A stretch of 26,621 nucleotides of DNA from Acutalibacteraceae bacterium (GTDB lineage Bacteria > Bacillota > Clostridia > Oscillospirales > Acutalibacteraceae): the NCBI GenBank assembly GCA_045597885.1, contig JAZLKY010000275.1, positions 1 to 26,621 of the forward strand, read 5' to 3'. The first letter of the stretch is position 1, and every line of letters begins with the position of its first letter. A model generated the notes under the pieces. It had not been told where the DNA came from. It searched no databases and worked only from the letters and a program-made list of their open reading frames with translations. This document shows, one piece after another, positions 717 to 21,199 of this stretch. The translations under genes were made by a program, and so were the position numbers.

Positions 717-2981
717 TTATGCTCCGACCGGATCTTTTTTCTTTTTCTTTCTCAGATGGGTGGTGGTGATGATACTGCCGCCTGCCGCCCCGATGATAAG
801 AGCGACCGCCGCAATGATCGCCGCAACGCCGCCGGAGATCGCGCTTCCCGCATAGGAAGCGGATGTTTCCCGTTCGAAGAGGATATAAGTTCCGCCGTAT
901 TTGTCCTCCTTGCCGGTGTAGAGCGGATCAAGCAGATTGATGGCGGCGGTTTCGTTGAACAGGTGAGCAAAGGATGCATTCTCACCAAAGTTTTTGCTCC
1001 CTGTCTTTATCAGCAGATCGCCGGCACAGATGGGACTGCCGGCATCAGTGTCTTTTGTCGTATACAGCACAAGCCAACCGGTCTTGGCATCCGCCTCGTG
1101 GTTGTTCACATCCGCCGCATCGCCGTCAAGTGTTTTGACTGTCTGATAGTAGACATAATCCTCGCCGTAGGGTGTCATGGCTGTTGACATGATGTGGTGG
1201 GGTATGTTTTCCTCAACAGGCTTTTCCTGTGTAAAATAATCCACCAGTGTGTAGATGTCATAGGCAAGGGCGACAACAAGAAGCACAAATGAGGCGACCT
1301 TGATCACGGATGAGAATTTGACCGTTCGCTGTACACTGTTATAATTCTCGGTCGCTCTGTTGAGGCGGTAACGGTACTGCGGGAACATCTCATCCAGCCC
1401 CGCCTCGTTGACCTCACGGGCGAATGCCGGACTGCCGCCATCCCAACGGTTGAGATATTTTTCGTATTCTTCCTCGTACTTCTGTACGGCGGCGTTAAGT
1501 TTCTCGGTTACTTTGGGGAGCTTTTTGAGTGCATTTTTCTTCAGTACCGTCGCAGTGACACCCGTCGCCGCCAGTCCGCAGGTCGATGCCCAGCAGATAA
1601 TCGTCCGCTTGCTCCAGTAGGACAGATCGCCGCCGACGATCCCGCCTAATTTTTCAAGCCAACTGTCATCGGAGAGGGATTCGTGATTGACGGCACTGCT
1701 GGTGAAGGCGACACCGTCATCGAAAACGGTCCTGTCCACACCGTCGAATATGGAAACGGGTTCCAGTGCTTCGGTGAATTCTTCATATTCTGCGATAGCA
1801 TCGGATGTGCCTTCCTCGGCATCTTCTTCGGCGGAGAAAGCACTTTGCAGGATCTCTTTGATGCCGATGAAATCCACCTGCTTTTTCTGACCGTCGCTCA
1901 TGCAGTAGACGAGCGGATACAGATCGGTCTTGTCGATCTGTGACGACGGTTGTTTAAAGAAGGAGAGTAGGGTGCCGGTGCCGTACTTTGAGCTTGCCAG
2001 CAGGGTGTAAAATCCAAAATCCGTCGTGTTGTCAAGTGCTTCCGGAATCTCAGCCAGTTCGTCTGCCTGTGCGACAAGTTCCTTTTGCTCATCGCTCAAG
2101 CCATCGGTGTCGCTCCCGTCGCTTTCGGTGGGATCAAATGCATCGTCTTTCACTTCAAGTTGACCGTTCTTGTCCTCTGCTACTACGTCCTTTTCAACAT
2201 TCAAAAGATAGTTGTAGAAGAAATCCCAATCTTTGTAGAGCGTGTCGGCTACCGTGCCGTACCGGCTCGCCAGATCCTCTTCAAATGCCGCATGGGTGGG
2301 GAAGCTTTTTTCGTACTGATCCAGCACATTGGGGCCGACATTTGACAGGCGGTCTACCAGTGTGGTGTCATCGGGATCACCTGCAAAAGAGAGCGCCCGG
2401 ATCATCGACATCACGATATCATCATTTGCCTGCATCAGTGTGTCGGTCAGTGCACGGATCGCTTCGGGTGAAGAATCAAAATCGAGAAAGTAATCACCCA
2501 TCAGTTTTTCGCTGTCATCGTCCTTGAACAGATTGAGTGCCTGATAGGCGAGGAGAGCGTTTTTGGTTTCGTTATTATAGCCGTTCTGGAATTCTTCGAT
2601 GAATGAACCGATATCCTCGACCACGGCTTCAATATTCTCTTCATAGTCCTTCATGATCTGCTGATAGTCAGAATAACTGAATTTGCCGAGCATATTCATG
2701 GCGGCGATATCCGTGATCGCTTCTTTCCTGTTTTCGGTTTCTTTATAACCAAGATATACACCGGTATCCAGTGTCAGGTTAAGATTGCCGACGACCATCT
2801 TGTATCCGGCGGACGCCAGCTTGCTTTTCGCATCTGCCGGAGTGGCTGCGGCAACAGTGACGATCTCACTGACATACTTTTTGCCATCCGTTGCGGCAAA
2901 TGCCTGCAACGGCAGTGTTGTGACTGCCATGATCAGCGCAAGCGCCAGGGAGAAAGCTTTGACAAAGTGTTTCATTTTCAT
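717..2981 (-). CDS. Exported, membrane-anchored protein (754 aa): signal peptide, beta-prism-like repeats, helical domain with two internal hydrophobic segments, C-terminal TM anchor. Paralogue of the N-terminal half of 3708..8393
   Basis: RBS GGAGGT before ATG. Signal peptide ends LQAFA|A. Repeat NLN..VYLGYKETENRKEAITDI. Hydrophobic segments at about 1542-1604 and 1232-1307. C-terminus GSAISGG-TM-RKKKKK. Confidence 0.85.
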   Translation of the reverse strand: MKMKHFVKAFSLALALIMAVTTLPLQAFAATDGKKYVSEIVTVAAATPADAKSKLASAGYKMVVGNLNLTLDTGVYLGYKETENRKEAITDIAAMNMLGKFSYSDYQQIMKDYEENIEAVVEDIGSFIEEFQNGYNNETKNALLAYQALNLFKDDDSEKLMGDYFLDFDSSPEAIRALTDTLMQANDDIVMSMIRALSFAGDPDDTTLVDRLSNVGPNVLDQYEKSFPTHAAFEEDLASRYGTVADTLYKDWDFFYNYLLNVEKDVVAEDKNGQLEVKDDAFDPTESDGSDTDGLSDEQKELVAQADELAEIPEALDNTTDFGFYTLLASSKYGTGTLLSFFKQPSSQIDKTDLYPLVYCMSDGQKKQVDFIGIKEILQSAFSAEEDAEEGTSDAIAEYEEFTEALEPVSIFDGVDRTVFDDGVAFTSSAVNHESLSDDSWLEKLGGIVGGDLSYWSKRTIICWASTCGLAATGVTATVLKKNALKKLPKVTEKLNAAVQKYEEEYEKYLNRWDGGSPAFAREVNEAGLDEMFPQYRYRLNRATENYNSVQRTVKFSSVIKVASFVLLVVALAYDIYTLVDYFTQEKPVEENIPHHIMSTAMTPYGEDYVYYQTVKTLDGDAADVNNHEADAKTGWLVLYTTKDTDAGSPICAGDLLIKTGSKNFGENASFAHLFNETAAINLLDPLYTGKEDKYGGTYILFERETSASYAGSAISGGVAAIIAAVALIIGAAGGSIITTTHLRKKKKKDPVGA

Positions 2982-3009
2982 GACCTCCGTTTATAAGTTT
3001 ATAAATTGT

Positions 3010-3711
3010 TCAATCAAATCCGTAATGGTATAGCATCCTGCCATCGCCGTACCGGGCATTTTCGATCGCCGTATCCGTGTTCTGCCCGGAAAATACACCG
3101 CCGTACTGGTCATATGCCGGCTTGCTCCTGTCGACAGTGCCTCCTTTACACAGCAAAGCCGCCTGCGGTGTGTGGCAGGTGATCACCGCATCACTGTCGT
3201 AATAGGCAGAAGAAACATAATCGGTGTCGGTGTTGATGCGGTATCCGTTCAGCAAAATATTCTCCACGGTAAAGGCAAGCCGTTCACCGCCGTCCATATT
3301 CAGATGGACCTTGACACTGTCAACGATGCCCGGCACCCATACCGAGAAGTGTGTCATATATTCGTTGTCATTCGGGCGAACGAAGGCGGCTTTCAGCACA
3401 TCAGCATTCAGATTCTGCTTTTTGTTTTTGTTCCACGACAGATCAAAACGGTAGGTCGAAGAATTACCGTAGCCGTTGTTGGCTTTGTATCCGAAATCGA
3501 ACCAAAGCTGATAGACGGCATCGTTATCCATATCATTTGAGTTGCACGGATTATACAGATAGATGTCGATATCGTAACGGTACATTCCGCTTGCCGCTTC
3601 GTTTCCGGTGCTTTGATCGGCTGTTCCGTCGGCGGCATTGGCTGCAAATGTCGTCAGCAACATAGCGAGCAGTAATACTATCGCTGTGACAGATGATTTG
3701 ATCCGGCTCAT
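3010..3711 (-). CDS. Secreted protein (about 233 aa) with a beta-sandwich domain, possibly PLAT/LH2-like
   Basis: Start moved to MSRIKS, an ATGA overlap with the upstream stop at 3708-3710. Signal peptide ends FAANA|A. Beta-rich pattern YRYDIDIY...VYQLWFDF...FVRPND...HFSVWVPGIVDSVKVHLNMDGGERLAFTVENILL. Confidence 0.75.
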   Translation of the reverse strand: MSRIKSSVTAIVLLLAMLLTTFAANAADGTADQSTGNEAASGMYRYDIDIYLYNPCNSNDMDNDAVYQLWFDFGYKANNGYGNSSTYRFDLSWNKNKKQNLNADVLKAAFVRPNDNEYMTHFSVWVPGIVDSVKVHLNMDGGERLAFTVENILLNGYRINTDTDYVSSAYYDSDAVITCHTPQAALLCKGGTVDRSKPAYDQYGGVFSGQNTDTAIENARYGDGRMLYHYGFD

Positions 3712-6700
3712 TTTAACACCAGCTTTCCGTATTTCATCGTGTTCCATGTCACGCCGCTCACGATCCCCGCACCGTCTTTGACACTGTTGTCGAATCGGTG
3801 AGCGAACAGATAGATCCGTGTATCTTTGTCGTGCCCCTCTTCGCTGGCAAAGACACCGTCGTTGAAATCACACCGTCTGCCCGAAGTTGTCATGACATTT
3901 TCCCATACGAGCTTATCTGAATTTTCCGGAACGAGGTCTTTTTCTCCCGCCGCCAGATTCATGACGGGTCGATTGGCGGTCCCGGTGGTATAATACAGAT
4001 ATATTCTTAATCCGTTCGTTCCTTCATTGAATGAAATGGCCTTTGTTCGGTCGCCACTGTATAGGTAGCGGTCACACGCCCGCTTGTATGTTACGCCGTC
4101 TATGTCGATGCTTGGTGCGCCGTCGTGCCCCACGGTGCAGAGCAAATCTCTGACGGCATATTTGGCAGTGCCGTTTTTGTCGGTATATCTGTCATAGCCT
4201 ACAAAAACGTATTTGCCGTTGGCACCTTTGTTCATATCGAGATTAATGAAAGCATTACACCCCATATTCAGCAGGTCGATCATCGCTTCATCACGGGTGT
4301 TGCCGCTGCCGATGTACAGATCACTGATGTAGGTTTTGGCGGTTTCATACTTCGAATGAATATAGTTTGTTTCGCCGGTATATCCTTTCAGTTCACCGGT
4401 TTTCCCTTCTCTGACGACCTCACCGTTATAGATCCTTTGCTGAACATCCTTTTCGGTCGCCGTCAGGGCGGAGGCGCAGTCCTTGACGAGAGGGACGGCA
4501 CTGAAGTCGATCGAGGTGATCGGTTCATTGGGGGCACATCCGACACTTGTGGAATAGTAGAGATAGTAGTCGCCGTTTTTATCATGGATCGGTTCGCTGC
4601 CGGCACGGGTGTACTCTGTCCCGCTCACGGTGATCGTCAGCGTTGCGTCACTTTTGTTCTGCGGTTTAAATTTGATAATGGAACAGATGGCATCCAAAGC
4701 GTTGTCCGTCCGTGTCACGCCGATGTATGCCGCTTCTTTCGGCTTGTTGTCAAATGCACTCTGCACCGAGTCGCTGTATCCGACCGCCAGATTTTTAAGT
4801 ATGACCTCATCGGCGGCACTCTGTATGGCATTGACGATGCATATATCGTCTTTCATATTGTTGTACCGCTCGGTCATTTCTTCTTTTTGGTCATCGTCCA
4901 GCTTCAGAAAACTCTTTTCTTTTCCGACTGTGGCATCAAAGCTCCATGAATAGACCGACAGAGCGGAAATATACTTTTTTTCGTGCGGCTTTTCGTCCTT
5001 GACGAACAGATACTGCGGCTTCTTTGCGCTGAAAGCGATATTATGCGCCGCAGTCCTGTTGGGTGTTTTGGCATCCTGTACGCTGTAAAGCCCCGCCCCG
5101 TTGTATTCCTGTTCTTTTTCCGGGTTGTCTGTGAGCTTGATGTCATCGGGTGTCAGTGGGGGAATGCCGGGGATCATGCCACTGACATAGAGATTTTTCA
5201 GTCTCGGTCTGGAGTCGCTCCATAAATACTGCTCATAGTCCTCGGCGGATTGAACAGGGTACTCAGCGATCCGGGGCAGGATCTCCTGTCGGGAGTCTTC
5301 ATTGATCCCGTTCCATGCATTGGATGTAAGGATACCTCGGTAGAATGAGGTGATTTTCACATCGTCTTCCTGTATCTGCCCGCAGAACTGATAGAACACA
5401 TTGCAGGCGGCAAAGCTTTTTGACAGGGTGACGGTCTTATTGTCTGCTTTCGGCTTTGGAACGGTCACTCTGCCGGATACGATCATCTCATTGAGGGCGA
5501 CAACACTGTCGGACAGTGCCGTATACGATTTGACGGAATAGACCGCCCGGTAGGGGTTGCAGGTGGTCGAATAACCGAGGTAGGTGACGATGTTGTCAAC
5601 CGTCTTTTCGCTGGATGTTTTGCCCTTGCCGATATGCCGGACGATCTCAAATGTCATATCGTAGTCTTCGGCAAAATCGTTCTCCCATACCGTAAACCCG
5701 TTTTCTTTGGCGTATTGCACGATCTCGTTGCCGTCCTTGGCACTGGTGTTTTTGCCGGTAAAGAATGCCAGTCCGCCGATATACTGTTCTCCCGATGTAT
5801 AAGTGACACTCGGATGGAAATAGATATATACATTTTGATCGCTTTTCCAGTTTTGATAGGTGAGGGAATAGGGATGATATTCGCTGTCGCCCGTGGCGTT
5901 GAGGTTATACGCATCACCGCCGCAGAACAGGTTGACAGGTTCAAACCCCTCACGGGCGGACGATTTACTGCTCACGATCTGCAGGTCAGCATAGACGGGC
6001 GTACCGGCGTAGGATGACTTACCGTAATAGATCGACGGGATAAAGGAAGGGATATCCTCTCCCGCCCGGACATAGGTTGTGACACCGTATGCCATCGAAT
6101 CCCCCGTACCGATCCCCTGCGGGACGATGCGGATATCTGTGATGGCTTCAGAGGCAACGGTCGTCGTTTTGTAACCGAGGTAGGTGTACGTGCCGCCCTT
6201 TTGGCTGTAAAATGAGGTCAGATTTTTATCAATCGGGGTGAAGCCCATTTTTTTGAGTTTGTCCTTTGCGGCTGTTTCCGTTTTTTCAACAGCGACATAA
6301 AGGGATTCCAGATACGGTGTGCCGGCAGGCGCATCCGATTGTTCTCCTTCGTTGATTCCGGTCGTTTCACCCGCATAATAGAAAAGATAAATGGCGGGAG
6401 CACTCTTATTTTCGGAGTAGGAATTGAGATCGGCAACCGAACCGGGGCCGAAATACCGTACCGGTCGATAGCCGGTTGGGGTGAGCGTATCTCCCTTGAC
6501 CAGTTTGAATGTGGCGCCTGTCGAATCGACACGGATGGGTTCGCCGGCGGTATCCTGCTTTGAATAATACAGGGCGGCAAATCGCTTGCCCTTGCCTGCG
6601 TTAAGGTCGCACGGAACTCCGTCCGCTCCCCTTACCGCATCGTATCGCATGTAGTGCGATTGGCGATAGTCGTAAACGTGGATCGGAATATCTTCTGCCG

Positions 6701-8393
6701 TATATTCCAGCACATCCTCTTCATCCATGACGCTGTCGATGATCCAGTCGATGAGCATATACGCCAGAACGATGACGGTAAATGCCGTCATTACCCATGT
6801 TCCGATGATCAGTACGACGCCCATATAGCCGAGAATGGTGGCGATCGCCCCCGTCCCTGCGGCAGTCGCCGCATGGGCGCACAACGCCCACATGCCGGTG
6901 GCTTCTGCTGTTGCCCAGCCGTAAAAGCCGAGTCGTGCCATTTGTACGACATTGACGGTGATGTTGGCGAGAACAACGACTGAATCAATCACCGTGGAAC
7001 CGATGGAAAAAGCGGTCATCAGATAATTGAGGTTTTTATCCTTCTGTTTTTCCGCAATCAGGTCGGAATACTCTTCCGCCGAGGCGGTCTCCCGTATTCC
7101 TTGGTAAGTAAGCGCGATTTCACTTGTATAGGGGATGGGATCGGTTCCTACCCAAACCGAGAGCTTTTCAGAGCCGTCCTTGTTGTACTTGGCGATATTG
7201 CTTTTCAGCTCGTCGGTGTACTTTTGGGTTTCGCTGATCTTGGCGTTGTCATTGACCAAAGAGAGCGCCATCTGCGGGATGCCGACGATCCGCATCACAC
7301 CGAACTGCCCTTTGGTGAGTGAGGCGGCAAGGGGATAGATCCTTCTGACATCCTCCATGGACGTATATTCTGCCTGACCGAGCGAAACGATGTAATCCCC
7401 GACTCCCCTTCCGTCCGCCAGAATATAGGTGTTCAGCAACTCATATGCCATCAGATAGAAGGCACTTTTATCCTTGTCCTCCAATTCTTCACAAGCGGTT
7501 ATATTATTGATGACTTCATCGGGGATCTCGTAATCTTCGGTGTTTTCCTCATCCTTATCTTTGAGCGCATCATACCCGTTTTTTTCAACGAACGCCTGGG
7601 CTGTGCCTACATTTTCGGCAAAGTCACGAAGCGGTTGACGCAGGTCCTTGGCGATCTTCTCATACTCACGGTCAAGCTGGCAGTCAAGATCCTCTGCGGT
7701 GATCTGCCGATGGACCGGGCTATTGACAAGGCGTTGCGCCCAGTTGTCTTCCGTACAGTCGGTGACACCCGCTGCCATGGTGTTGATCACCGTGAGCATG
7801 ATGCCGGTATTGGCTTGACAGAACAACTTTTTGATGAAGTCCTCGCTACAGTCATCACCTGCCAGATAATCCCCAAGAGTCACGTTGTTTTTTTCGGGGA
7901 TGTACAGCAGGTCCAGTATTTCTTTCGCTTCTATGGCGGCAGGGCTGTTGTTTTGGAGATTGTTTGCATATTCGTTGAACGATACCATCAGCGCAGACGT
8001 TATTTTTGAGACCTGCTCCATTTCCTTTTCAACGATGTACGAATAATTTTTCGTTTCGTAGCCGGTGTTCATTTCCAGCACCGACAGATCGGTAACGGCT
8101 TCATATTGATTCGTAGTGGTTTTATATCCGAGGATCACGGCATTGGCATCGTTTCCTTCATTGAGATCGCTGTCTACGGGTATATACCCACCGTCTTTAC
8201 ATTTTTTGATCGCTTCGGCTTTCGTTGGGGCGGAAAAAGTACAAACGGATTCGATATAAAGCTCCTGCGCCGCCGCCTGCGTTGTGTTTTCTGCCGTCGT
8301 TCCTAAAGCGGCAGAGGCGGGGTTGATAAGGAGGGCTGCTGTCAAAAGGTAGGTCAGCACCGTCATGGCGACAGATTTCATCTTACCGCTCAT
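3708..8393 (-). CDS. Large exported protein (1561 aa): signal peptide, helical domain, roughly 95-aa hydrophobic Gly/Ala-rich segment, multiple beta-prism-like repeats, no C-terminal anchor
   Basis: Long open frame overlapping the upstream stop by 11 nt. Signal peptide ends PASA|A. Repeats DLNEG..ILGYK..AVTDL, DLNAG..ALYY..GEPI, TYLGYKTTTVASEAITDI, DMNKGANGKYVFVGY and FNEG..IYLYY..RPV. Hydrophobic stretch at about 6740-7025. Confidence 0.9.
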   Translation of the reverse strand: MSGKMKSVAMTVLTYLLTAALLINPASAALGTTAENTTQAAAQELYIESVCTFSAPTKAEAIKKCKDGGYIPVDSDLNEGNDANAVILGYKTTTNQYEAVTDLSVLEMNTGYETKNYSYIVEKEMEQVSKITSALMVSFNEYANNLQNNSPAAIEAKEILDLLYIPEKNNVTLGDYLAGDDCSEDFIKKLFCQANTGIMLTVINTMAAGVTDCTEDNWAQRLVNSPVHRQITAEDLDCQLDREYEKIAKDLRQPLRDFAENVGTAQAFVEKNGYDALKDKDEENTEDYEIPDEVINNITACEELEDKDKSAFYLMAYELLNTYILADGRGVGDYIVSLGQAEYTSMEDVRRIYPLAASLTKGQFGVMRIVGIPQMALSLVNDNAKISETQKYTDELKSNIAKYNKDGSEKLSVWVGTDPIPYTSEIALTYQGIRETASAEEYSDLIAEKQKDKNLNYLMTAFSIGSTVIDSVVVLANITVNVVQMARLGFYGWATAEATGMWALCAHAATAAGTGAIATILGYMGVVLIIGTWVMTAFTVIVLAYMLIDWIIDSVMDEEDVLEYTAEDIPIHVYDYRQSHYMRYDAVRGADGVPCDLNAGKGKRFAALYYSKQDTAGEPIRVDSTGATFKLVKGDTLTPTGYRPVRYFGPGSVADLNSYSENKSAPAIYLFYYAGETTGINEGEQSDAPAGTPYLESLYVAVEKTETAAKDKLKKMGFTPIDKNLTSFYSQKGGTYTYLGYKTTTVASEAITDIRIVPQGIGTGDSMAYGVTTYVRAGEDIPSFIPSIYYGKSSYAGTPVYADLQIVSSKSSAREGFEPVNLFCGGDAYNLNATGDSEYHPYSLTYQNWKSDQNVYIYFHPSVTYTSGEQYIGGLAFFTGKNTSAKDGNEIVQYAKENGFTVWENDFAEDYDMTFEIVRHIGKGKTSSEKTVDNIVTYLGYSTTCNPYRAVYSVKSYTALSDSVVALNEMIVSGRVTVPKPKADNKTVTLSKSFAACNVFYQFCGQIQEDDVKITSFYRGILTSNAWNGINEDSRQEILPRIAEYPVQSAEDYEQYLWSDSRPRLKNLYVSGMIPGIPPLTPDDIKLTDNPEKEQEYNGAGLYSVQDAKTPNRTAAHNIAFSAKKPQYLFVKDEKPHEKKYISALSVYSWSFDATVGKEKSFLKLDDDQKEEMTERYNNMKDDICIVNAIQSAADEVILKNLAVGYSDSVQSAFDNKPKEAAYIGVTRTDNALDAICSIIKFKPQNKSDATLTITVSGTEYTRAGSEPIHDKNGDYYLYYSTSVGCAPNEPITSIDFSAVPLVKDCASALTATEKDVQQRIYNGEVVREGKTGELKGYTGETNYIHSKYETAKTYISDLYIGSGNTRDEAMIDLLNMGCNAFINLDMNKGANGKYVFVGYDRYTDKNGTAKYAVRDLLCTVGHDGAPSIDIDGVTYKRACDRYLYSGDRTKAISFNEGTNGLRIYLYYTTGTANRPVMNLAAGEKDLVPENSDKLVWENVMTTSGRRCDFNDGVFASEEGHDKDTRIYLFAHRFDNSVKDGAGIVSGVTWNTMKYGKLVLK

Positions 8394-10521
8394 CGTTTAC
8401 AGCCGCCTCCTTTTTTCTGCGCTTGTTTATGACAAAGAAAACGATCCCCGCCGCCAGCATCACGGCGATGCCGGAAAAGATCAGTATCGGGTTTCCGCTT
8501 CCGATGGCGGAGGTGATCAGTTGCAGCCGTTCGGTTTTCGCTCCGTCAGCCGTGAAGGCAAATGTTTTTGAAGAATCGTCCTGCCAAAAATATCTCTTCT
8601 GATACTCTGAGATGTTCTCAGAAACCGTGTGCTCGGAATCGCCTGTCCTCACCCATATTTCCGAACCGGCATCAAGACCGCCGCAAAAGATTTTTGCCTC
8701 CGTCAGCCCGAAATCGTCAAGATACAGGTCGTCCCGGATATTCTGCGGTGAAAAGTTGTCCCGGATGAGCAGGCATCCCTGCACACTGACATCGTACAGT
8801 TCATCGACATAAACGCCGCTTCCGTGACCGGCAGAGGTGTTGCGGGTGATGCTGGCATCCGAAAGGCTGACCGAATTGCCGCATACAGTTATTGCCCCGC
8901 CGTTTTTACCCGAAGTGTTGTACTGATAACTTCCGGAAAGGCGGGTGCCTTTGCTTGAATTACAATATACTGCTCCGCCGCCGCCATCTGCCCGGTTTGA
9001 CCGAAAGTCGCATCTGTCAAAGGTAGCATAGGCGCCGCTCTCGATATATACTGCTCCGCCGTCGTCCTTACTCTTATTGTTGCTGAACAGACAGCCGGAC
9101 GCCAGAAACCTTCCGTCATTCACATATACAGCACCGCCGTTATCCTCGGAATAGTTTCCCTCAAATATACAGTTGTCAGCAGTGATCACACAATCCTCGT
9201 GATCTTCATATATAGCACCGCCGTGACAGTTATCGGTGCTGTCGCAGGTCATGTTGCAGTAGAAGCCGACATTTTTCAGTGTCACCCTAACGCCGCTTTC
9301 CGTCACACGGATCGCTCCGCCGTGGTCGTTAGTCACACAGTTGACGACCGAGCCGTTTTCCATGGTGAGTGATGCCCCTTTTTTGAGGTGAAAACAGCCT
9401 CCGACGCCGTCACCTGCTCCGCCGGTTATAACGCCGCCGGAGATCCCCGATGAATAGTTCTTTCGTTTTGGAGACGAATCAATTATTTTGAGTGACGAGT
9501 TTTCATCCAAATAAAAGATATATCCGTCCGACGTCATTCTGCCTGCCTTGTTCCGGTTCACCGTATAGCCATTGAGATCGAGGGTAAAGGAGGCATTTTT
9601 TGCCAGTTTTATCGGCTTTGTTAAATTGATGTCGGAGAAGAGCTCTATCACCGGCTTTCCGGTGGTGTCGGAACAGACAGCAGTAAACGCACTGTCGGCG
9701 TTTTGATAATCCTTTATCGTTCCTCCGGTCTGTACGACCGCCTTGACACCTGAGGCAGGGGAGTATTGTCCGTACTCATAGAATGTGATCGTTTTGTAGG
9801 TGATGTTTTCGATTCGCTTTGCTGCCGTTTTATCACCGCCCAATTGCATCTGCCGAATCCCCGCCAATGCGCACGGGTGGCTTTTGACCAGTTCCCGGTT
9901 GACATCATGATAGGACAGGCTGACTGACAGCCTGCCTGCTTCATATGCTACCGTCAGAACACATTCTTCGTTTGCTCCGATCTTGGCATTTTTGGCGGTG
10001 AGGACATCCTCGGCGGGAGCAGCTGATGCGTGGTTGATTTTTTCTCCGCCTACATATACATCTCCGTTTTCCGCTACGGATAAAAGGACAAGCGGATCAT
10101 TCAGAACAAGGCTCTTCCCGAACGTTTCGGCTGACAAGTACAGAAATGCTTTCCCGTTGTCGGCATCGCCGTCATCGGATGCGGTGCTGTATGCGATCTC
10201 CATCCGAAAATCCTTCAGTTGGTTCAGAGGGTTATTTTTATACAGAGAAAGGATACCCGCCGGTACGGTAAGACCGTCACTGTCTTTTGTTGCTTCTCCT
10301 GTTTCGGTCAGTTTCCACTGGGATGTCCCCGAAACAAGCACTTCTTTGGCTCTGGAGGCAGTGTATACCGTCTCTGTATTGCTCCTGAAATCGTGGACCT
10401 CTGAGCGGTTAAATACATTTATTGCCGACACGTTCGATACAAAGATTACTGCACAGCCTGCTATACACACTGCCAGCGACAGCAACCGAAGCCGATTGGC
10501 ACAGCGATTTGCATTTTTCAT
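8383..10521 (-). CDS. Surface adhesin-like protein (712 aa): N-terminal beta-sandwich, right-handed beta-helix with Pmp-type GGA[IV]/FxxN repeats, C-terminal TM anchor
   Basis: TLDLNGYT cap. Repeats HGGAIRV, HGGAIYE, FEGNYSEDNGGAVYV, FSNNKSKDDGGAVYI, FRSNRADGGGGAVYC and NGGAITV. Ends TSAIGSG-TM-KRRKKE. ATGA overlap with the upstream gene. Confidence 0.85.
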   Translation of the reverse strand: MKNANRCANRLRLLSLAVCIAGCAVIFVSNVSAINVFNRSEVHDFRSNTETVYTASRAKEVLVSGTSQWKLTETGEATKDSDGLTVPAGILSLYKNNPLNQLKDFRMEIAYSTASDDGDADNGKAFLYLSAETFGKSLVLNDPLVLLSVAENGDVYVGGEKINHASAAPAEDVLTAKNAKIGANEECVLTVAYEAGRLSVSLSYHDVNRELVKSHPCALAGIRQMQLGGDKTAAKRIENITYKTITFYEYGQYSPASGVKAVVQTGGTIKDYQNADSAFTAVCSDTTGKPVIELFSDINLTKPIKLAKNASFTLDLNGYTVNRNKAGRMTSDGYIFYLDENSSLKIIDSSPKRKNYSSGISGGVITGGAGDGVGGCFHLKKGASLTMENGSVVNCVTNDHGGAIRVTESGVRVTLKNVGFYCNMTCDSTDNCHGGAIYEDHEDCVITADNCIFEGNYSEDNGGAVYVNDGRFLASGCLFSNNKSKDDGGAVYIESGAYATFDRCDFRSNRADGGGGAVYCNSSKGTRLSGSYQYNTSGKNGGAITVCGNSVSLSDASITRNTSAGHGSGVYVDELYDVSVQGCLLIRDNFSPQNIRDDLYLDDFGLTEAKIFCGGLDAGSEIWVRTGDSEHTVSENISEYQKRYFWQDDSSKTFAFTADGAKTERLQLITSAIGSGNPILIFSGIAVMLAAGIVFFVINKRRKKEAAVNDER

Positions 10522-11921
10522 CTGTTTTGGCTCACCTCGCTATCTTTTCTCTTGCGTCTGTTTGAGGCTGTGATGCAAACACCTGTTACCGTCATTGCCG
10601 CCACCAGGAAAGCGGCAATGGCGATAAGACTGCCCCCGCCGATCGCCGAACCGGGGATCTCTTCGGTTTTGCGGCTGCCGTCAGCAGTCTTTTCGTCTTC
10701 CTCTGCCTGCTTATTGATGGCGTTGTCCTCGATATCCCGTGACTGCCCGTCAATGGGATAGGCGTTTTCCGCCATACCGTTTTTGCTCTTCACTTCTTTT
10801 GCTACTGCATCGGCAACGGCAGTCAGTCCGTTTTTGCCTAAAACGATATACAGTCCGGATCCGGAGACGGCTTTTTCGTTTTCAAAACAGTTGACAGGTA
10901 ATTGCGTATATTCTTCTTTTGACTGTGTCAAATCGCCGTAGGCTTCTTCGTTGAATACTTTGGAGGCGCCGGCAGTGGTTTTGCCGCCGAAATACGACCT
11001 TGCCCAGTCGCCGAGCGTAAAATCTTCGCCCATCACAGCACCAAGTGTTATGTCGGTTATCGGATTCCCGATCCTTTCCGATCGGGTAAAAAACAATTCC
11101 CTCGCTTTTCCGTCACAGATCATTTTGCCTGCCGATGTGAAAGGAACGCCGCAGAGAGAGGCAGTGTCGGACACCGCCACATATCTTACCGCCTGTGCCT
11201 TATCTGCTGTTCTGTTATAGCAGAGATAAGTGGCGGTATTACCCGATGTACAGATGGGGGCATCAATGAAATAATCGCATCCGGTCGAAGTCAGTTTGCT
11301 CAAAAGACGGTCGCCGTTTGCCACCTCGACTGTCTTTATTTCACTGATATACGGAAGACATACCGTACGGCGGATCATAAAGAAATACAGTTCGTATCCG
11401 TCTATTCCCGCCTCAAAATCGGCGGCACTGCCGTCTGCCGTGCGTACCGGCACGGAACCGTCGCTGAAGAAGTCCGGAAGGGCGGCATCGTTTTTCGGAT
11501 TGCGGGAAAATGACAGCAGTGCCACGATACCGTCCCCTGCCTTTTTGTCCTTTGTGCAGTAAAGATAAAGGGGAAAACCGGCAGTTCCTGCATTAAGATC
11601 CTTTTCGGACACCAGGGTGTATGTGACCGAACCTATCGAAAGAGAGGGCCTCTTTTCCGGGGATACAACAAGACCGGTGATGGCATCGTCTCCGGTTTTA
11701 TAGCCCATATAAATCATTTCTCCCGATCCCGGCGCATGATTGAGATTCTGATAGATCACCGTGTATCCTTTTTTCTCCAATTCGGTGATCGCTTCTTTTC
11801 CCACGGCGATCTTTATTTCCGACAGGCATGAGCCGGAAGCCGCAAAAGTCGAAAAGGGCGGAAATAACATAATAACGGCAAGCACAGACAGCAGTATCCG
11901 ACGCCAATCATTTCTTTTCAA
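10518..11921 (-). CDS. Exported, TM-anchored protein (about 467 aa) with two triplets of beta-prism-like (MABP-like) repeats; first gene of the operon
   Basis: TTG start (MKRNDWRR) after RBS GAGGTGG. Signal peptide ends STFA|A. Repeats NLN..IYMGYK..AITGL, DLNAG..LYLYCTK..GIVAL, DFEAG..LYFF, PYISEI..TYLCYNR and ELFFTR..NPITDI. Ends GSAIGGG-TM-RRKRK. Confidence 0.85.
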   Translation of the reverse strand: MKRNDWRRILLSVLAVIMLFPPFSTFAASGSCLSEIKIAVGKEAITELEKKGYTVIYQNLNHAPGSGEMIYMGYKTGDDAITGLVVSPEKRPSLSIGSVTYTLVSEKDLNAGTAGFPLYLYCTKDKKAGDGIVALLSFSRNPKNDAALPDFFSDGSVPVRTADGSAADFEAGIDGYELYFFMIRRTVCLPYISEIKTVEVANGDRLLSKLTSTGCDYFIDAPICTSGNTATYLCYNRTADKAQAVRYVAVSDTASLCGVPFTSAGKMICDGKARELFFTRSERIGNPITDITLGAVMGEDFTLGDWARSYFGGKTTAGASKVFNEEAYGDLTQSKEEYTQLPVNCFENEKAVSGSGLYIVLGKNGLTAVADAVAKEVKSKNGMAENAYPIDGQSRDIEDNAINKQAEEDEKTADGSRKTEEIPGSAIGGGSLIAIAAFLVAAMTVTGVCITASNRRKRKDSEVSQNR

Positions 11922-11998
11922 AACAGACCACCTCACTATGTTACTGATATGCCGCCCTTCGGCTGCGCTGAAAATTTCTTAAAATGGGGATATACATA

Positions 11999-12027
11999 TT
12001 GAAAAACAAAAAGGAACATATTATAAT
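11999..12027 (+). promoter_or_regulatory. SigA-type promoter for the 7TM-prsW pair
   Basis: TTGAAA (11999-12004), 17-nt spacer, TATAAT (12022-12027). Confidence 0.75.
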
Positions 12028-12099
12028 TTTATTGTGAAGAACCAACCCAAATCCCACCGGAAAGGAGGCTTTCGCCCGTCGAAAGCCAAGGCGGTCACG

Positions 12100-12768
12100 A
12101 TGAAAACATATCTTATATCAAACATACACATCCTTATTTGCTGTGCTGTCGGGCTTGCTTACGGTATCGCACGCATCAACAGCAAAAATAAGCCTCCGAT
12201 GTATCTGCTTTTTTCTCTTTTTGCCCTTGTCAGTGCATTTCTGTCGAGAGTATTCTATACCTTGTCCATCGTCTTTCACGGGGGGATCCCCGATACGTTC
12301 AACATCGGCTTTCTCGGCTATGCGGCAACATTCCTGTTTTTTCTCTTGGCGAATATCGGTCAGATGGACTGGCTCGTAGATGACAGGAAATCATTGAGAC
12401 CGATATACCGCATCATTCCTGCCATTGTGCCGACGGCAGAGCTTTTTGCCGCAGTGATCGGATTGTTTCTCAAAAACGTAACATTTTCCGTCCGCCTCTC
12501 GTTCCTTGTCATCACCGTTGTTGCGGGCTTCGCCGGGTATTTCAATATAAAGCACATCATTGTTCCCGATATTGAATTCGGTATTGTCAAAGCGGTCAGG
12601 GGTAACAATCTGATCGAATTTGCTATCGGTATCCTCTCTCTTGCGGAGATCGGATTCAGTGTCTACGGGCTCAACGAGCTTATTCTCTATGTTCAGATAG
12701 TGCTCGGCGTCCTTTACATTGCCGTCATTCCCGTTCTCAGTATGGAGGTGAAGAAATGGACACGATGA
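12100..12768 (+). CDS. Integral membrane protein (about 222 aa) with about 7 hydrophobic helices, function unknown
   Basis: ATG at 12100, downstream of the promoter. Seven hydrophobic stretches by eye. Its stop overlaps the start of the next gene. Confidence 0.75.
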   Translation: MKTYLISNIHILICCAVGLAYGIARINSKNKPPMYLLFSLFALVSAFLSRVFYTLSIVFHGGIPDTFNIGFLGYAATFLFFLLANIGQMDWLVDDRKSLRPIYRIIPAIVPTAELFAAVIGLFLKNVTFSVRLSFLVITVVAGFAGYFNIKHIIVPDIEFGIVKAVRGNNLIEFAIGILSLAEIGFSVYGLNELILYVQIVLGVLYIAVIPVLSMEVKKWTR

Positions 12769-13454
12769 ACTATATCCTTTTTATCTGTACCGCCACGCCG
12801 ATGCTTCTGATGCTCATTCCCATAGAAAAGGGATCGAGAAAAGTGATATTCTTTATGCTCATCGGGATGTTTTGCTGTCTTTTCATCAGCGAGGTCAACG
12901 GCTTTTTTCTCAACATATCCGATTTTGATCTTTTGTATTTCACCATCAATATCACGCCTGTCACGGAAGAGATCATTAAGACACTGCCGGTGCTTCTGTT
13001 CGCCTTAATCTGCTCCGATAGCAGGAAAGACATCATCACCGCTTCGTTCTCCGTCGGTGTCGGATTCGCCATGCTTGAAAATCTCATGATATTGACACAG
13101 AACTTTCAGTCGGTCGATCTTTGGTTTGCGCTCATCCGAGGATTCTGTTCGGGGCTGATGCACAGCATCTGCACAATAGCCATCGGTTTCTTCATCGTCT
13201 TCATCAAAAAGCGGCACAAGATATTTGTGGCGGGCAGTATCACTGCGCTGAATCTGGCGATCGTCTATCATTCGGTCTATAATCTTCTTGTCCAGGCGTC
13301 TTCCCGGATCGCAAGGATTTCCGGGCTTGGTCTCCCACTGATCACCTATACCATAGTCAATCTGACACTGATCGTGCGGATCAGGCAGACTGTCAATAAA
13401 CCCCACAACCGTCAAAAACAGTTACTAAAGGATCAAATCGACCGGGGGAAATGA
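12756..13454 (+). CDS. prsW: PrsW-family glutamic-type intramembrane protease
   Basis: PVTEEIIK, GVGFAMLEN, GLMH and YHSVYN follow the PrsW motif order (EExxK, FxxxEN, H, HxxxN). RBS GGAGGTG. The last 24 residues or so are encoded inside the repeat element. Confidence 0.85.
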   Translation: MDTMNYILFICTATPMLLMLIPIEKGSRKVIFFMLIGMFCCLFISEVNGFFLNISDFDLLYFTINITPVTEEIIKTLPVLLFALICSDSRKDIITASFSVGVGFAMLENLMILTQNFQSVDLWFALIRGFCSGLMHSICTIAIGFFIVFIKKRHKIFVAGSITALNLAIVYHSVYNLLVQASSRIARISGLGLPLITYTIVNLTLIVRIRQTVNKPHNRQKQLLKDQIDRGK

Positions 13455-13591: not shown

Positions 13592-13672
13592 AGCGTGTCA
13601 ATAAACCCCACAACCGTCAAAAACAGTTACTAAAGGATCAAATCGACCGGGGGAAATGATCGTCTGTTTTTT
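13391..13672 (+). repeat. 77-bp exact direct repeat, two copies (13391-13467 and 13596-13672)
   Basis: tgtcaataaaccccacaaccgtcaaaaacagttactaaaggatcaaatcgaccgggggaaatgatcgtctgtttttt occurs twice, offset by 205 bp. Confidence 0.95.
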
Positions 13673-14429
13673 GATTTCCCCAAATGCGCTGTCGCCATTC
13701 GCCGGGCGTACAGCCGTTATGTTTGACAAAGGCTTTGTAAAAATTGACATAATTGCCGAATCCGCATTCTACAGCGATATCAGACAGGGAACGGGAGGAA
13801 TTTTCCATTAGGACCTTGGCGGTATTCAGCCGCCATTCGGTCATATAGGCGCAGGGAGACACGCCGACCTCTTTCCGGAACAGTTGGATGAGCCGATTGC
13901 TGCTGTAGCCGCAGTGGCTTGCCATTTCGCCAAGAGAAAGCGGGCGGGACAGATCCTGCCGTGCCAGCGCCGTTACCTCTTCGATCGCCCTCCTGCCGGG
14001 GGTGGACGGCTCTCTTGGAAGAAGTTGAACCAGTATAGAGAGAAAGACGGCGTTTTTTTCCAAAATGGCACTGCCGGGATCCTGCTCGGTTTCTTCCAGT
14101 CTTTCCCAAAGCTGCCGCATTTCATTGATGCGATATTTCCCCCGTATCGGGATGCCGCCCTCGCCATAGGCACCGATAAAGTGGATGTAATAATACCGGG
14201 CGGTTTCACTGGGGATAACGCCCCGTTGTCTGAGTCCCCGCCGTTGGATATAGTATTCTCCGGCGGAACATTTCTGCTCTGTTCCGTCTTCTTCAAAGTA
14301 CAGTGTTCCCGCCGTCATCAGGATCAGCACATCCTCGGCGCAGATGCGGTCGACATGCTTCTCTCCCAGCAGGAAAGACTTCGTTCCGTTGTGACAGAAC
14401 CGGGGCAAAACATCGGTTTGCAATCCCAT
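13638..14429 (-). CDS. AraC-family transcriptional regulator
   Basis: RBS GAGGTGG. Cupin-like N-terminus. Both HTHs are present (LSLGEMASHCGYSSNRLIQLFRKEVG; LSDIAVECGFGNYVNFYKAFVKHNGCTP). Confidence 0.9.
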   Translation of the reverse strand: MGLQTDVLPRFCHNGTKSFLLGEKHVDRICAEDVLILMTAGTLYFEEDGTEQKCSAGEYYIQRRGLRQRGVIPSETARYYYIHFIGAYGEGGIPIRGKYRINEMRQLWERLEETEQDPGSAILEKNAVFLSILVQLLPREPSTPGRRAIEEVTALARQDLSRPLSLGEMASHCGYSSNRLIQLFRKEVGVSPCAYMTEWRLNTAKVLMENSSRSLSDIAVECGFGNYVNFYKAFVKHNGCTPGEWRQRIWGNQKTDDHFPRSI

Positions 14430-14446
14430 GATACCACCTCAGTGTC

Positions 14447-14524
14447 AGTATAGCACGAATTATGATATTTGCAATAGAAATGTTGATATTTTTCATTGTT
14501 CGGATGAGGAAAAGGTGGTATGAT
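14447..14524. promoter_or_regulatory. Divergent promoters with two TGATATTT direct repeats 21 bp apart (putative AraC half-sites)
   Basis: Minus strand: TTGCAA (14469-74), 16 nt, TGcTATACT (-10 at 14447-52). Plus strand: TTGTTC (14496-501), 17 nt, TGgTATGAT (-10 at 14519-24). tgatattt at 14463-70 and 14484-91. Confidence 0.55.
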
Positions 14525-14624
14525 CCATATAGGTAAGGCGACCTCTGAAAAAGATCAAGCAAAATGGATGCAAGGGGATTTTTCAGAGGTATCTACATAT
14601 CAGAAATGTATGGAGGGAACCGTT

Positions 14625-16460
14625 ATGATGAAAGAGCTTGATCCTCGTTTTTTCCATCCCGCCGGATGGATGAGAAAACAACTGGAAATACAGGCAGACG
14701 GGTTGTCGGGACATCTTGACAAGATGTGGCAGGATATCCGGGACAGTGCCTGGATCGGCGGTAATTGTGAAGGGTGGGAGCGGGTACCGTATTGGCTTGA
14801 CGGCTTTATCCCATTGGCATGGTTGCTCGACGATACAGATAAAAAGGGGCGTGCCAAGCGGTATGTGGATGCCATCCTGCAACGGCAAAAGCCGGACGGC
14901 TGGATATGCCCCTGCACCGATGAAGAGCGGGCGGGATATGATGTGTGGGCGGCATTTCTCATCTGCAAAGTGCTGACACTGTATCATCAGTTCACCGCAG
15001 ATGAAGCGGCGCTTAAAGGCGCAAAGCGGGCGCTCCTGTGTTTGCTCCGCATGATGGAAGACGGAGAGATCCGTCTGCGTGACTGGGGAAAATTCCGGTG
15101 GTTCGAATGTTTGATCCCGTTGCAGTATCTCTATGACCGTCAGCCGGAAGACTGGATCCTCCGACTGGCGCATCTGTTGCGGGAGCAGGGAGCGGATTAC
15201 GGTGACTATACCGAGGAATGGAAACACCGTGCCACCGGATGGACCTATCAAAACCATATCGTCAACCTGTGCATGATGTTCAAGGCAGATGCCCTTTATC
15301 GCCATTTGACCGGGGAGGATATTCCCGACCGTGCCGCCGATTTTTGGCACATCCTCGAAGAATACAACGGTACGGCGGTGGGGACATTCACCGGAGATGA
15401 ATGCCTGGCGGGAATCGGTGCGGATCACGGGACGGAACTCTGCTCGGTGGTCGAGCTGATGTATACCTGTGAATGGATGCTGATGCTCACCGGTGATCCG
15501 GTCTGGGGCGACCGGTTGGAGAAGGCGGCATTCAACGCCTTCCCTGCCACCGTCAGCGAGAATATGTGGACACACCAGTACGATCAGCAGGTCAATCAGA
15601 TCGCCTGTCAACGGTTGGGCGAAAAGGTGGTCTTCACGACCAACGGACCGGAATCGCATTTGTTCGGATTGGAACCGCATTACGGCTGTTGTACTGCTAA
15701 TTTTAATCAGGGATTCCCGAAACTGGCGATGCATTCTTTCCTTCGTTCGTCGGACGGACTCGTCAGTGCTGTGCTGATCCCCGGCGCAGTGAAGGCGGAT
15801 ATTGACGGTACGGCGGTGACGGTGGAGCTGAAGACCGAATACCCGTTCCGCAACACCCTGCAGTATACGGTCACGGCAGAACAGCCGGTCATGTTTGATC
15901 TGTCGGTGCGGGTCCCCGGCTGGGCAGAGGGTGTGACGGTCGACGGTGTGACAACTGACGCGTGCGGCTTTTTGCATTTGCGGCGGGAATGGAGAGGTAC
16001 TGCCACTGTGACGGTGGAACTAAGTGCCACGCCGCATCTGCAGCCCCGTCCCAATGCGATGGCAGTAGCGGAATACGGTGCGCTGGTATTCTCTCTGCCC
16101 CTGACGGTGTCATGGAACAAGCTGGAATATGAGCGGGATGGCGTAGAACGTAAATTCCCGTATTGCGATTATGAACTGACCACGGATGACGAGTGGCGGT
16201 ACGGCTTTGCGGACGGGAAGCTGACGGTGCGGGAACTGCCTGTTGACAAATCTGTTGCGCCGTTTTCCGATACACAGCCCCGTCTGGTATTGGAAATGGC
16301 ACTGAACCGGGTGGCATGGAACGAGAACCCCGACTGCCCGACTGTGGCGTCGGCTCTGCCGGTTTCTGCCGAACCGATCGGTGAGCCGGAGCAAAAAGTG
16401 CTGTTCCCCTACGGTTGCGCCAAGCTACGGATGACCGAAATGCCGATCAAATACAAATAA
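14625..16460 (+). CDS. GH127/GH146-type (DUF1680) glycoside hydrolase, beta-L-arabinofuranosidase-like
   Basis: Start moved to MMKELD after RBS GGAGGG. Motifs GWERVPYWLDG, ELCSVVE, RLEKAAFNA, YGCCTANFNQGFPKL and TEYPF. Confidence 0.85.
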   Translation: MMKELDPRFFHPAGWMRKQLEIQADGLSGHLDKMWQDIRDSAWIGGNCEGWERVPYWLDGFIPLAWLLDDTDKKGRAKRYVDAILQRQKPDGWICPCTDEERAGYDVWAAFLICKVLTLYHQFTADEAALKGAKRALLCLLRMMEDGEIRLRDWGKFRWFECLIPLQYLYDRQPEDWILRLAHLLREQGADYGDYTEEWKHRATGWTYQNHIVNLCMMFKADALYRHLTGEDIPDRAADFWHILEEYNGTAVGTFTGDECLAGIGADHGTELCSVVELMYTCEWMLMLTGDPVWGDRLEKAAFNAFPATVSENMWTHQYDQQVNQIACQRLGEKVVFTTNGPESHLFGLEPHYGCCTANFNQGFPKLAMHSFLRSSDGLVSAVLIPGAVKADIDGTAVTVELKTEYPFRNTLQYTVTAEQPVMFDLSVRVPGWAEGVTVDGVTTDACGFLHLRREWRGTATVTVELSATPHLQPRPNAMAVAEYGALVFSLPLTVSWNKLEYERDGVERKFPYCDYELTTDDEWRYGFADGKLTVRELPVDKSVAPFSDTQPRLVLEMALNRVAWNENPDCPTVASALPVSAEPIGEPEQKVLFPYGCAKLRMTEMPIKYK

Positions 16461-16472
16461 GGGGGAAAACCG

Positions 16473-17453: not shown

Positions 17454-17477
17454 CTACAAAAGCGAAAGGATGACAAG

Positions 17478-21183: not shown

Positions 21184-21199
21184 ATCATTCTCATTCCTT

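Follow-up and report, generated by a model that had tools for sequence, protein, structure and literature searches.

The closest described counterparts of the system reported here are the myxosortase-type systems of Haft (MrtX/MrtC/MrtP, MrtJ, MrtS and MrtA, with the MYXO-, JDVT-, Synerg- and CGP-CTERM signals). In these systems, sorting signals at the C-terminus, the motifs of which contain a Cys, are processed by intramembrane proteases of the CPBP family (10.1101/2023.06.07.544157), and experimental support has been presented (PMC11980579). The locus under study is located in a contig of 26,621 nucleotides (JAZLKY010000275.1 of assembly GCA_045597885.1; its full length is called “the window” below) from a metagenome-assembled genome (MAG) of an Acutalibacteraceae bacterium. 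This MAG is 88% complete (1.84 Mb), and the window is one of its contigs. The locus comprises a cassette of five minus-strand genes for predicted exported proteins and, oriented divergently from it, a pair of genes coding for a seven-transmembrane (7-TM) protein and a PrsW-family protease. On balance, it probably specifies a surface binding or contact layer whose anchors are processed by the 7-TM/PrsW pair.

The locus resembles the myxosortase-type systems in the tripartite signal borne by unrelated surface proteins and in the assignment of a cognate glutamic-type intramembrane protease through gene neighborhood and co-occurrence; some of the described systems are dedicated ones with their targets encoded next door. 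It differs in that the protease belongs to the PrsW branch (PF13367) instead of CPBP (PF02517), in the 7-TM partner that is always present, in its Gram-positive-type hosts (Clostridia) and in the motif, which has an invariant Ser, lacks Cys and matches no NCBIfam sorting model. We know of no obligatory 7-TM partner of PrsW.

PrsW has been known so far mainly as an anti-sigma site-1 protease. The enzyme of Bacillus subtilis cleaves RsiW at the Ala168-Ser169 bond, which is located outside the membrane (PMC8767453), and PrsW proteins fused to toxins have been proposed to act as releasing peptidases (PMC3482391). The protease of the window shares the family and the catalytic motifs of the B. subtilis enzyme, and a related pair at another locus (L047, below) resides in an operon with extracytoplasmic-function (ECF) sigma and anti-sigma-like genes. 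However, it is not an orthologue (34.8 bits with the NF033739 equivalog model of B. subtilis PrsW, the cut-off of which is 225), neither the window nor the close loci were found to contain a sigma or anti-sigma gene, and its substrates are presumed to be surface proteins with a type-I anchor. Sortase-dependent adhesin and pilus islands likewise place a cluster of surface proteins with a common C-terminal signal beside its own processing enzyme. In the present cluster, however, no LPXTG motif, sortase, pilin, cohesin or dockerin was found, and the enzyme is predicted to be an intramembrane glutamic protease.

The shared C-terminal signal and its candidate protease

Five minus-strand open reading frames (ORFs) fill positions 717-11936. 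The product of gene 1 (10518-11921; 467 residues, or 472 from a GTG at 11936) is exported and combines two beta-prism units of the MABP type with an acidic linker and a C-terminal signal followed by a transmembrane (TM) helix and a basic tail. The same C-terminal arrangement is found in the product of gene 2 (8383-10521; 712 residues), after a domain of ca. 300 residues and a beta-helix of Pmp repeats. Genes 3 (3708-8393; 1561 residues) and 4 (3010-3711; 233 residues, or 245 from an ATG at 3747) specify an exported protein and a secreted PLAT-like protein, respectively, both without a C-terminal anchor. Gene 5 (717-2981) codes for an exported 754-residue membrane protein with a split MABP prism, a helical ectodomain, a TM hairpin that carries a polar helical extension, and a terminal signal, TM helix and KKKKK tail. 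These assignments were made from ORF calls, with the addition of Pfam and NCBIfam matches for gene 2, paralogy and a prism search for gene 3, and an AlphaFold2 (AF2) model and family profile for gene 5. Signal peptides and topology were judged by sequence inspection and a hydropathy scan. All five N-termini are basic at first, then hydrophobic, and then have small residues that resemble a cleavage site; Sec-type export is predicted for all five products. The 754-, 712- and 472-residue proteins end in a TM helix with a Lys/Arg tail, which the 1561- and 245-residue proteins lack.

The three anchored families have unrelated passenger domains and a common C-terminal signal: [AG]-S-[VAI]-[FIL]-[SG]-x-[GS], then a TM helix of ca. 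22 residues, then a Lys/Arg cluster. On the minus strand of the window, it reads G-S-A-I-S-G-G, TM helix and a run of five Lys in gene 5 (720-866; tail-profile E 6.7e-11), T-S-A-I-G-S-G, TM helix and an Arg/Lys cluster in gene 2 (8386-8526; E 2.4e-14), and G-S-A-I-G-G-G, TM helix and an Arg/Lys cluster in gene 1 (10521-10661; E 4.1e-14). Among complete members of the three anchored families, 50/56, 44/48 and 21/35 have the core motif within their C-terminal 60 residues; the large proteins have it in only 2/30 cases and the PLAT-like proteins in 1/15. Motif, TM helix and basic tail were found together in none of 343 control ORFs from the same loci. When a 45-position profile of the tail was run against the source genome, only the three cluster proteins were recovered (E 1e-11 to 1e-14); the next match, at 2.6e-3, covered the TM helix only. 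In two further genomes (G145 and G250), matches to this profile were confined to cassette genes.

None of the NCBIfam sorting-domain (CTERM) models matched these tails. LPXTG is absent from them, a weak match to TIGR01167 begins at position 6 of that model and covers only the TM and basic parts, and the motif contains no Cys. The tripartite makeup of sorting signals (motif, TM helix and basic end on unrelated proteins) was thus found, together with co-occurrence and neighborhood with one enzyme family, and the signal tracks the protease pair and not the passenger. It is a candidate for a new signal for protein sorting or shedding on which a protease of the PrsW type would act. A literature search revealed no account of this cassette or of a C-terminal signal that depends on PrsW.

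The pair itself is on the plus strand. The 7-TM gene (12100-12768; 222 residues) was started at the ATG at 12100, where the profile match also begins, in an ORF that is open from 12034. The gene for the PrsW-family glutamic-type intramembrane protease (12756-13454; 232 residues) overlaps it by 13 nt. The protease scored 61.5 bits with PF13367 (cut-off, 23.5). In a comparison of 14 sequences, no variation was seen at residues E71, E72, K75, F104, E108, N109, R128, H136, H172 and N176; they make up the catalytic motifs EExxK, FAxxEN, R, MH and HxxxN, all of them invariant, and the enzyme is therefore predicted to be catalytically intact. No Pfam, NCBIfam or PDB relative of the 7-TM protein was found. 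The idea that it is a degenerate PrsW paralogue was ruled out by a profile-profile comparison (probability 0.7%). If sides of the membrane are assigned by the positive-inside rule, PrsW would have its catalytic motifs near the outer leaflet, in the same place as the C-terminal motif, and the 7-TM protein would have its conserved acidic and basic motifs on the cytoplasmic side, where the Lys/Arg tails would be as well.

Linkage between the pair and the surface proteins was assessed by scanning all GTDB species genomes with a PrsW alignment. This search yielded 404 relatives, and the nearest 80 loci were analyzed; they come from MAGs of human-type, horse and ruminant samples that belong to the Acutalibacteraceae, Oscillospiraceae, Ruminococcus and Lachnospiraceae and, being relatives of one protease, are not independent. 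The 7-TM gene adjoins PrsW in 78 of the 80, and at least one of the surface families is present in 67; the other 13 are mostly short contigs. Among 300 genomes of the GTDB family, close orthologues of the 7-TM protein (E<1e-50) were detected in exactly the six genomes with the large protein, in one of which the pair is on a different contig. The source genome contains a second, diverged 7-TM/PrsW pair (G000 C259:5237-6534, locus L035), the PrsW of which is 37% identical; it is located on a 7.3-kb contig and adjoins a gene for an 813-residue protein without a family match or a recognizable tail signal.

Distant 7-TM/PrsW pairs are preceded by genes for other proteins with the motif and a TM helix, i.e. 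a BspA-type leucine-rich-repeat (LRR) protein, a GLUG protein and a beta-helix protein. In one operon (L047:9213-11298), genes for an ECF sigma factor, a small, two-TM, anti-sigma-like protein, a 7-TM protein and PrsW follow one another, and the small protein has an Ala-Ser-Ile-Phe motif in a short outer loop before its second TM helix. At L048:54-1658, this small protein recurs with the 7-TM gene and PrsW. The arrangement at L047 mirrors that of sigma-W, RsiW and PrsW and looks like a circuit of this style in which the recognition motif of the cassette is used. Downstream at L047 are a second, similar small protein and an FG-GAP surface protein of >2600 residues. In two other Clostridia families, 7-TM/PrsW operons run straight into a gene for a MACPF lipoprotein (L046:7485-10496 and L045:8001-10493). 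The C-terminal prism of the L046 MACPF protein is similar to the cassette prisms (BLAST, 9e-12).

Recurrence, gene order and distribution of the cassette

The same gene set and order recur in most of 80 further loci, which far exceeds chance. At loci of six other genera of the family, the order is a prism protein of ca. 430 residues (the orthologue of gene 1, which is first in the cassette elsewhere), one to nine proteins of the 754-residue type, a beta-helix protein of ca. 495 residues, a protein of ca. 1540 residues and a PLAT-like protein, and the 7-TM/PrsW pair adjoins the cassette. The order in the window, with the 754-residue gene last, was seen again at three further loci. Tandem paralogues of this gene number six in G145 and nine in G250; at L029-L032 (G145:C7 and G250:C2), they form arrays of full-length copies linked by short overlaps. 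The PLAT-like protein has a single domain in the window and in its closest relative (L004) and a tandem duplication, with a length of 436 residues, in most others (e.g. L029:6796-8106). A prior examination of the DNA, hereafter the sequence-only reading, had proposed a five-gene complex of fixed stoichiometry and had named homologues scattered without synteny as the outcome that would speak against it. The neighborhood search revealed strong synteny. The five-gene, stoichiometric unit did not hold up: the 754-residue protein has one to nine copies, and stoichiometry is therefore not fixed; the PLAT-like protein is single or duplicated; and the conserved unit exceeds five genes, including as it does the 7-TM/PrsW pair (12100-13454).

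The profile of the 754-residue family matched 1510 representative clusters, 636 of them at E <=1e-30, in a search of 1.8 billion proteins; none of these ca. 1500 clusters is annotated. For the 1561-residue family, there were 116 clusters, all of them unnamed and from gut metagenomes. Hundreds of uncultured Clostridia of the gut, sampled from humans, horses and ruminants, carry the cassette. It belongs to the gut Oscillospirales, and the closest relatives are from Acutalibacteraceae MAGs. Many of the contigs at L059-L090 derive from one “cleanbin” MAG set with titles such as Escherichia coli, Bacteroides faecis and Collinsella. These titles look unreliable and are not taken to indicate gene transfer; taxonomy was based on better-labeled records. 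Because the large protein was detected in 8 of 300 genomes of the GTDB family and was not found in the two same-genus genomes that were searched, the cassette is considered accessory and patchy. A first scan of genome contigs with the single 1561-residue sequence as the query gave no matches, and no match that would indicate a mobile-element origin was obtained with tblastn against plasmid and phage collections.

All junctions in the window were read base by base. Genes 1 and 2 and genes 3 and 4 are joined by ATGA overlaps (at 10521-10518 and 3711-3708, respectively), genes 2 and 3 overlap by 11 nt (8383-8393), and a gap of 28 nt (2982-3009) separates genes 4 and 5. The description of five coupled, exported, minus-strand genes in the sequence-only reading was accurate in every ORF, every junction and the division into three anchored and two anchorless products. 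For gene 1, the TTG at 11921 is the likelier start, because a Shine-Dalgarno-like GAGGTG precedes it; the GTG at 11936 is the other candidate. The ATG at 3711 fits the N-termini of gene 4 orthologues. Gene 5 may actually start at its second ATG, at 2975, located 8 nt after a GGAGG. A promoter scan detected a strong sigma-70-like site on the plus strand (11999-12027; TTGAAA-17-TATAAT, 11/12) in the intergenic region (11922-12099) from which the surface operon and the protease pair diverge, and no clear minus-strand promoter. A scan for terminators performed no better than on shuffled sequences.

Searches of Pfam, NCBIfam, PADLOC and PHROGs with the five proteins and the protease pair returned only the Pmp repeats and PrsW, with no matches from PADLOC or PHROGs. 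These results support a view of the product set as conserved, potentially co-transcribed, exported or anchored proteins that match no named system.

Folds and membrane topology of the surface proteins

The 754-residue protein was modeled with AF2 from an alignment of 27 paralogues and orthologues (predicted local-distance difference test, pLDDT, 69.6). The model features a beta-alpha-beta element (36-96), a helical region (104-450), a long hairpin (458-584), a beta domain (596-702) and a C-terminal helix. In an exhaustive structural comparison, residues 33-706 minus the insert matched residues 357-509 of Plu-MACPF (2qp2_A) with a Z of 13.7, and the beta-prism of Mp2Ba1 (8b6v_A) was matched with a Z of 13.6. 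Both alignments have root-mean-square deviations of 2.4-2.8 over 133-138 residues; the matches ranked below these two prisms were generic helical hairpins (Z <=9.2). Structural matches to the prism in the ESM Atlas were to MACPF + MABP proteins. Judging from the model, the protein has a single MABP-type prism interrupted by a helical and TM insertion of ca. 500 residues, an unusual architecture. No meaningful structural match was obtained for the helical insert. Foldseek gave no match of the model to the PDB at E <=0.001, and the AFDB clusters contained only two unnamed family members. Searches of a language-model atlas returned only “hypothetical protein” clusters. The Pfam MABP model (PF10240) did not match any of the five proteins at E <=0.1, and PDB sequence profiles for the 754-residue, 7-TM and PLAT-like families gave nothing meaningful.

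The N-terminal 680 residues of the 1561-residue protein are paralogous to the 754-residue protein (25% identity, E 5e-15). This part contains a split prism, a helical region and a hydrophobic block of ca. 100 residues; more prism units follow. An iterated search from the prism of the 754-residue protein placed prism units at 45-173/555-673, 691-860, 868-972 and 1353-1532 of the large protein and at 37-177 and 195-258 of the gene 1 product. The MABP-type repeats that had been read from the sequence were thus borne out by structure (Z of 13.7 and 13.6).

The cassette links MABP prisms to the surface of commensals; elsewhere, these prisms occur in toxins that form pores and in trafficking proteins of eukaryotes. 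In MACPF pore formers, they serve as the domains that bind the membrane (de Souza and Aravind 2010, PMC2881412). In common with the MACPF-MABP proteins Plu-MACPF (2qp2) and Mp2Ba1 (8b6v), the cassette proteins have the prism fold, and their prisms are similar in sequence to that of the clostridial MACPF protein encoded after a related pair. The cassette proteins differ from Plu-MACPF and Mp2Ba1 in that the window has no MACPF domain and in that the prisms are repeated and, in two proteins, split by the insertion of ca. 500 residues.

Gene 2 codes for a protein with the GGA[ILV] and FxxN repeats that define chlamydial Pmp proteins; Pfam Chlam_PMP (PF02415) matched it in three stretches (E 7.5e-13), as did TIGR01376 (E 2e-12). 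Export and a predicted surface exposure are also in common with the chlamydial Pmp and beta-helix adhesins. Unlike them, it has no autotransporter beta-barrel (Pfam); its C-terminus is a single TM helix with a basic tail, and this anchor bears the cluster-specific signal. Its extra N-terminal domain of ca. 300 residues has no Pfam match and is shared only with the closest relatives (L004, 710 residues); the other orthologues, of ca. 495 residues, begin at the beta-helix. Outside the closest clade, orthologues align to residues 307-711 only.

The AF2 model of the gene 4 protein (pLDDT 81) had its best matches in four libraries to PLAT/LH2 domains, namely those of lipoprotein lipase (E 1.5e-3, probability 0.98), clostridial alpha-toxin (Z 7.2) and lipoxygenases (15-lipoxygenase, Z 7.0), with TM-scores of 0.3-0.44. 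PLAT clusters of AFDB and the Atlas were matched as well; Pfam PF01477 was not. The model moderately supports the presence of one PLAT-like beta-sandwich, the modest scores (Z <8) leaving membership in the family unproven, and to this extent the PLAT-like character assigned in the sequence-only reading is sustained.

The long helical hairpin of gene 5 (residues 458-584; 1230-1610, minus strand) was delineated from the AF2 model and the hydropathy scan. It has two hydrophobic segments, a marginal one at 461-481 and a strong one at 553-584; both are at the base of the hairpin, Lys and Arg residues are on the loop side of both, and the tip (513-517) is polar. In an alignment of the family, the region between the segments is the least conserved. 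The simplest reading of the model is a TM hairpin in the membrane of the producer with a cytoplasmic helical extension, because both halves of the prism must be on one side of the membrane. The corresponding hydrophobic block of the 1561-residue protein (residues 457-556; 6726-7025, minus strand), identified from the sequence and the hydropathy scan, probably makes two or four membrane spans.

Proposed function, alternatives and surroundings

The best reading of these sequences is that the cassette builds a multi-protein assembly outside the cytoplasmic membrane. The ectodomains are modules of binding types (MABP prisms, a Pmp-type beta-helix and a PLAT-like sandwich), and the neighboring 7-TM/PrsW pair probably recognizes and cuts the shared signal. 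The 754- and 1561-residue paralogues, held in the producer's membrane by their internal TM hairpins, would serve as a platform. The 7-TM/PrsW pair would recognize the juxtamembrane signal at the outer face and cleave it, conceivably at the [AG]|S bond by analogy with the cleavage of RsiW by PrsW at Ala|Ser. Such cleavage would free the beta-helix and two-prism proteins, which would then be held only by the platform or be shed, and would also trim the C-terminus of the platform protein. More speculatively, the assembly may bind a target surface (a lipid or glycan of a host or microbial membrane) and thus constitute an adhesion or contact layer as opposed to a soluble toxin. If the binding role is true, the proteins are candidates for contact with the host or with microbes in the gut.

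Several observations weigh against this reading. In three genomes with distant pairs that lack substrate neighbors, the tail profile gave no full-length match, and several distant pairs have no recognizable substrate nearby or genome-wide. The 1561-residue and PLAT-like proteins are without the signal. Motif variants showed no covariation between the families of a locus (identity of 0.265 vs. 0.258), although the script used for this comparison sometimes took a match inside the TM helix, so the result is weak either way. The two related operons that run into MACPF lipoprotein genes have no tail on these products, and the pair may thus have another or an additional role. The topology of the 754-residue protein is inferred, given that the first segment of its hairpin is only marginally hydrophobic, and the role in adhesion is the more speculative for being drawn from domain types.

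A different idea is that of the sequence-only reading: a contact-dependent apparatus for membrane attack, delivery or fusion, the helical inserts of which would enter a target membrane under guidance from the prisms, PLAT-like protein and beta-helix. We regard it as unlikely. Its membrane-targeting part is kept alive by the MACPF-linked pairs and by the MABP and PLAT-like domain types, both of which proteins directed to membranes typically carry: the best matches of the prism are in Plu-MACPF and Mp2Ba1, from a family of membrane-binding domains of pore formers (PMC2881412); the prism repeats resemble the prism of the MACPF protein directly after one related pair, and a second related pair is followed by another MACPF lipoprotein; and PLAT domains bind lipid in clostridial alpha-toxin and lipases. 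The cassette also encodes two helical paralogues with hydrophobic segments, as do YaxAB/XaxAB and Hbl/Nhe, and an analogy to these alpha-pore formers had been proposed from the sequence. It failed on structural grounds, since no significant match of the helical region to ClyA, Yax or Xax proteins was obtained (XaxB and PaxB only at E 5.2-7.4 and a TM-score of 0.07, with XaxB at E 5.2), and its other helical matches were generic (Z <=9). The base-located hydrophobic segments argue against a toxin-type hairpin, the hydrophobic part of which is its tip; with the polar tip and the Lys/Arg residues by the loop, they fit a resident TM hairpin with a cytoplasmic extension. Signal peptides and additional C-terminal anchors, features that also set these proteins apart from the toxins, mean that Sec would integrate them into the membrane of the producer. 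No MACPF domain was found in the window proteins with Pfam (MACPF genes were met only beside related pairs in other genomes), the window contains no toxin domain or immunity gene, and a copy number that varies from 1 to 9 is likewise at odds with such a machine. A combination of ideas, in which a new type of cell-bound, membrane-engaging machine in Gram-positive bacteria of the gut is kin to the MACPF-MABP toxins through its prisms, the PrsW/7-TM cut arms or releases subunits, the split-prism paralogues with their helical inserts then engage or perforate the membrane of a neighboring cell, and the pair defines a Cys-free, PrsW-dependent C-terminal sorting signal not described before, strikes us as quite unlikely.

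What the pair does could also be viewed apart from sorting, as a module for sensing, signaling or self-protection that cuts the anchors upon envelope stress or contact, or that shields the producer as Abi/CPBP proteins do for bacteriocins. The prototype PrsW is a stress-triggered anti-sigma site-1 protease (PMC8767453), PrsW fusions act as proposed toxin-releasing peptidases (PMC3482391), one distant pair is part of the ECF sigma/anti-sigma-like operon with its motif-bearing small membrane protein, and other pairs are linked to MACPF genes without the tail. Nonetheless, we deem this view improbable as well: sigma and anti-sigma genes are missing from the window and the close loci, and the tight, near-obligate linkage with many tail-bearing substrates makes the pair resemble a dedicated sorting system. 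It also overlaps with the favored reading of a processed contact layer, as the motif would still be cut and only the timing and purpose would differ. Very unlikely, in our estimation, is a stable, S-layer-like anchored coat in which the motif is an assembly or packing interface and the protease is linked by regulation or chance. Small-residue motifs beside TM helices often mediate helix packing, the tandem expansion (six copies in G145, nine in G250) would suit a repetitive coat, and no covariation between motif variants and loci was detected. The motif is found, however, on unrelated single proteins (LRR, GLUG, beta-helix and anti-sigma-like) whose only common neighbor is the 7-TM/PrsW pair, and the patchiness of the cassette (8/300 family genomes, and not found in the two searched of the same genus) argues against an essential envelope layer.

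The regions that flank the locus were also inspected. At the downstream border of the cassette (1-717), the match of a minus-strand ORF (60-467) to the short-chain dehydrogenase model is limited to positions 101-233 of the model, and a plus-strand frame at ca. 558-680 covers no more than the first half of an AraC helix-turn-helix domain. From their sequences, these gene remnants look like the scar of an insertion or rearrangement. A plus-strand ORF (3-1187) that overlaps the end of the 754-residue gene is probably spurious. Past the protease pair, 13638-18368 is an ordinary sugar-utilization block, with genes for an AraC-family regulator, a GH127-like beta-L-arabinofuranosidase, a GH43/GH32-like protein and a short-chain dehydrogenase. 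The genes valS and metG are located at 18472-23152.

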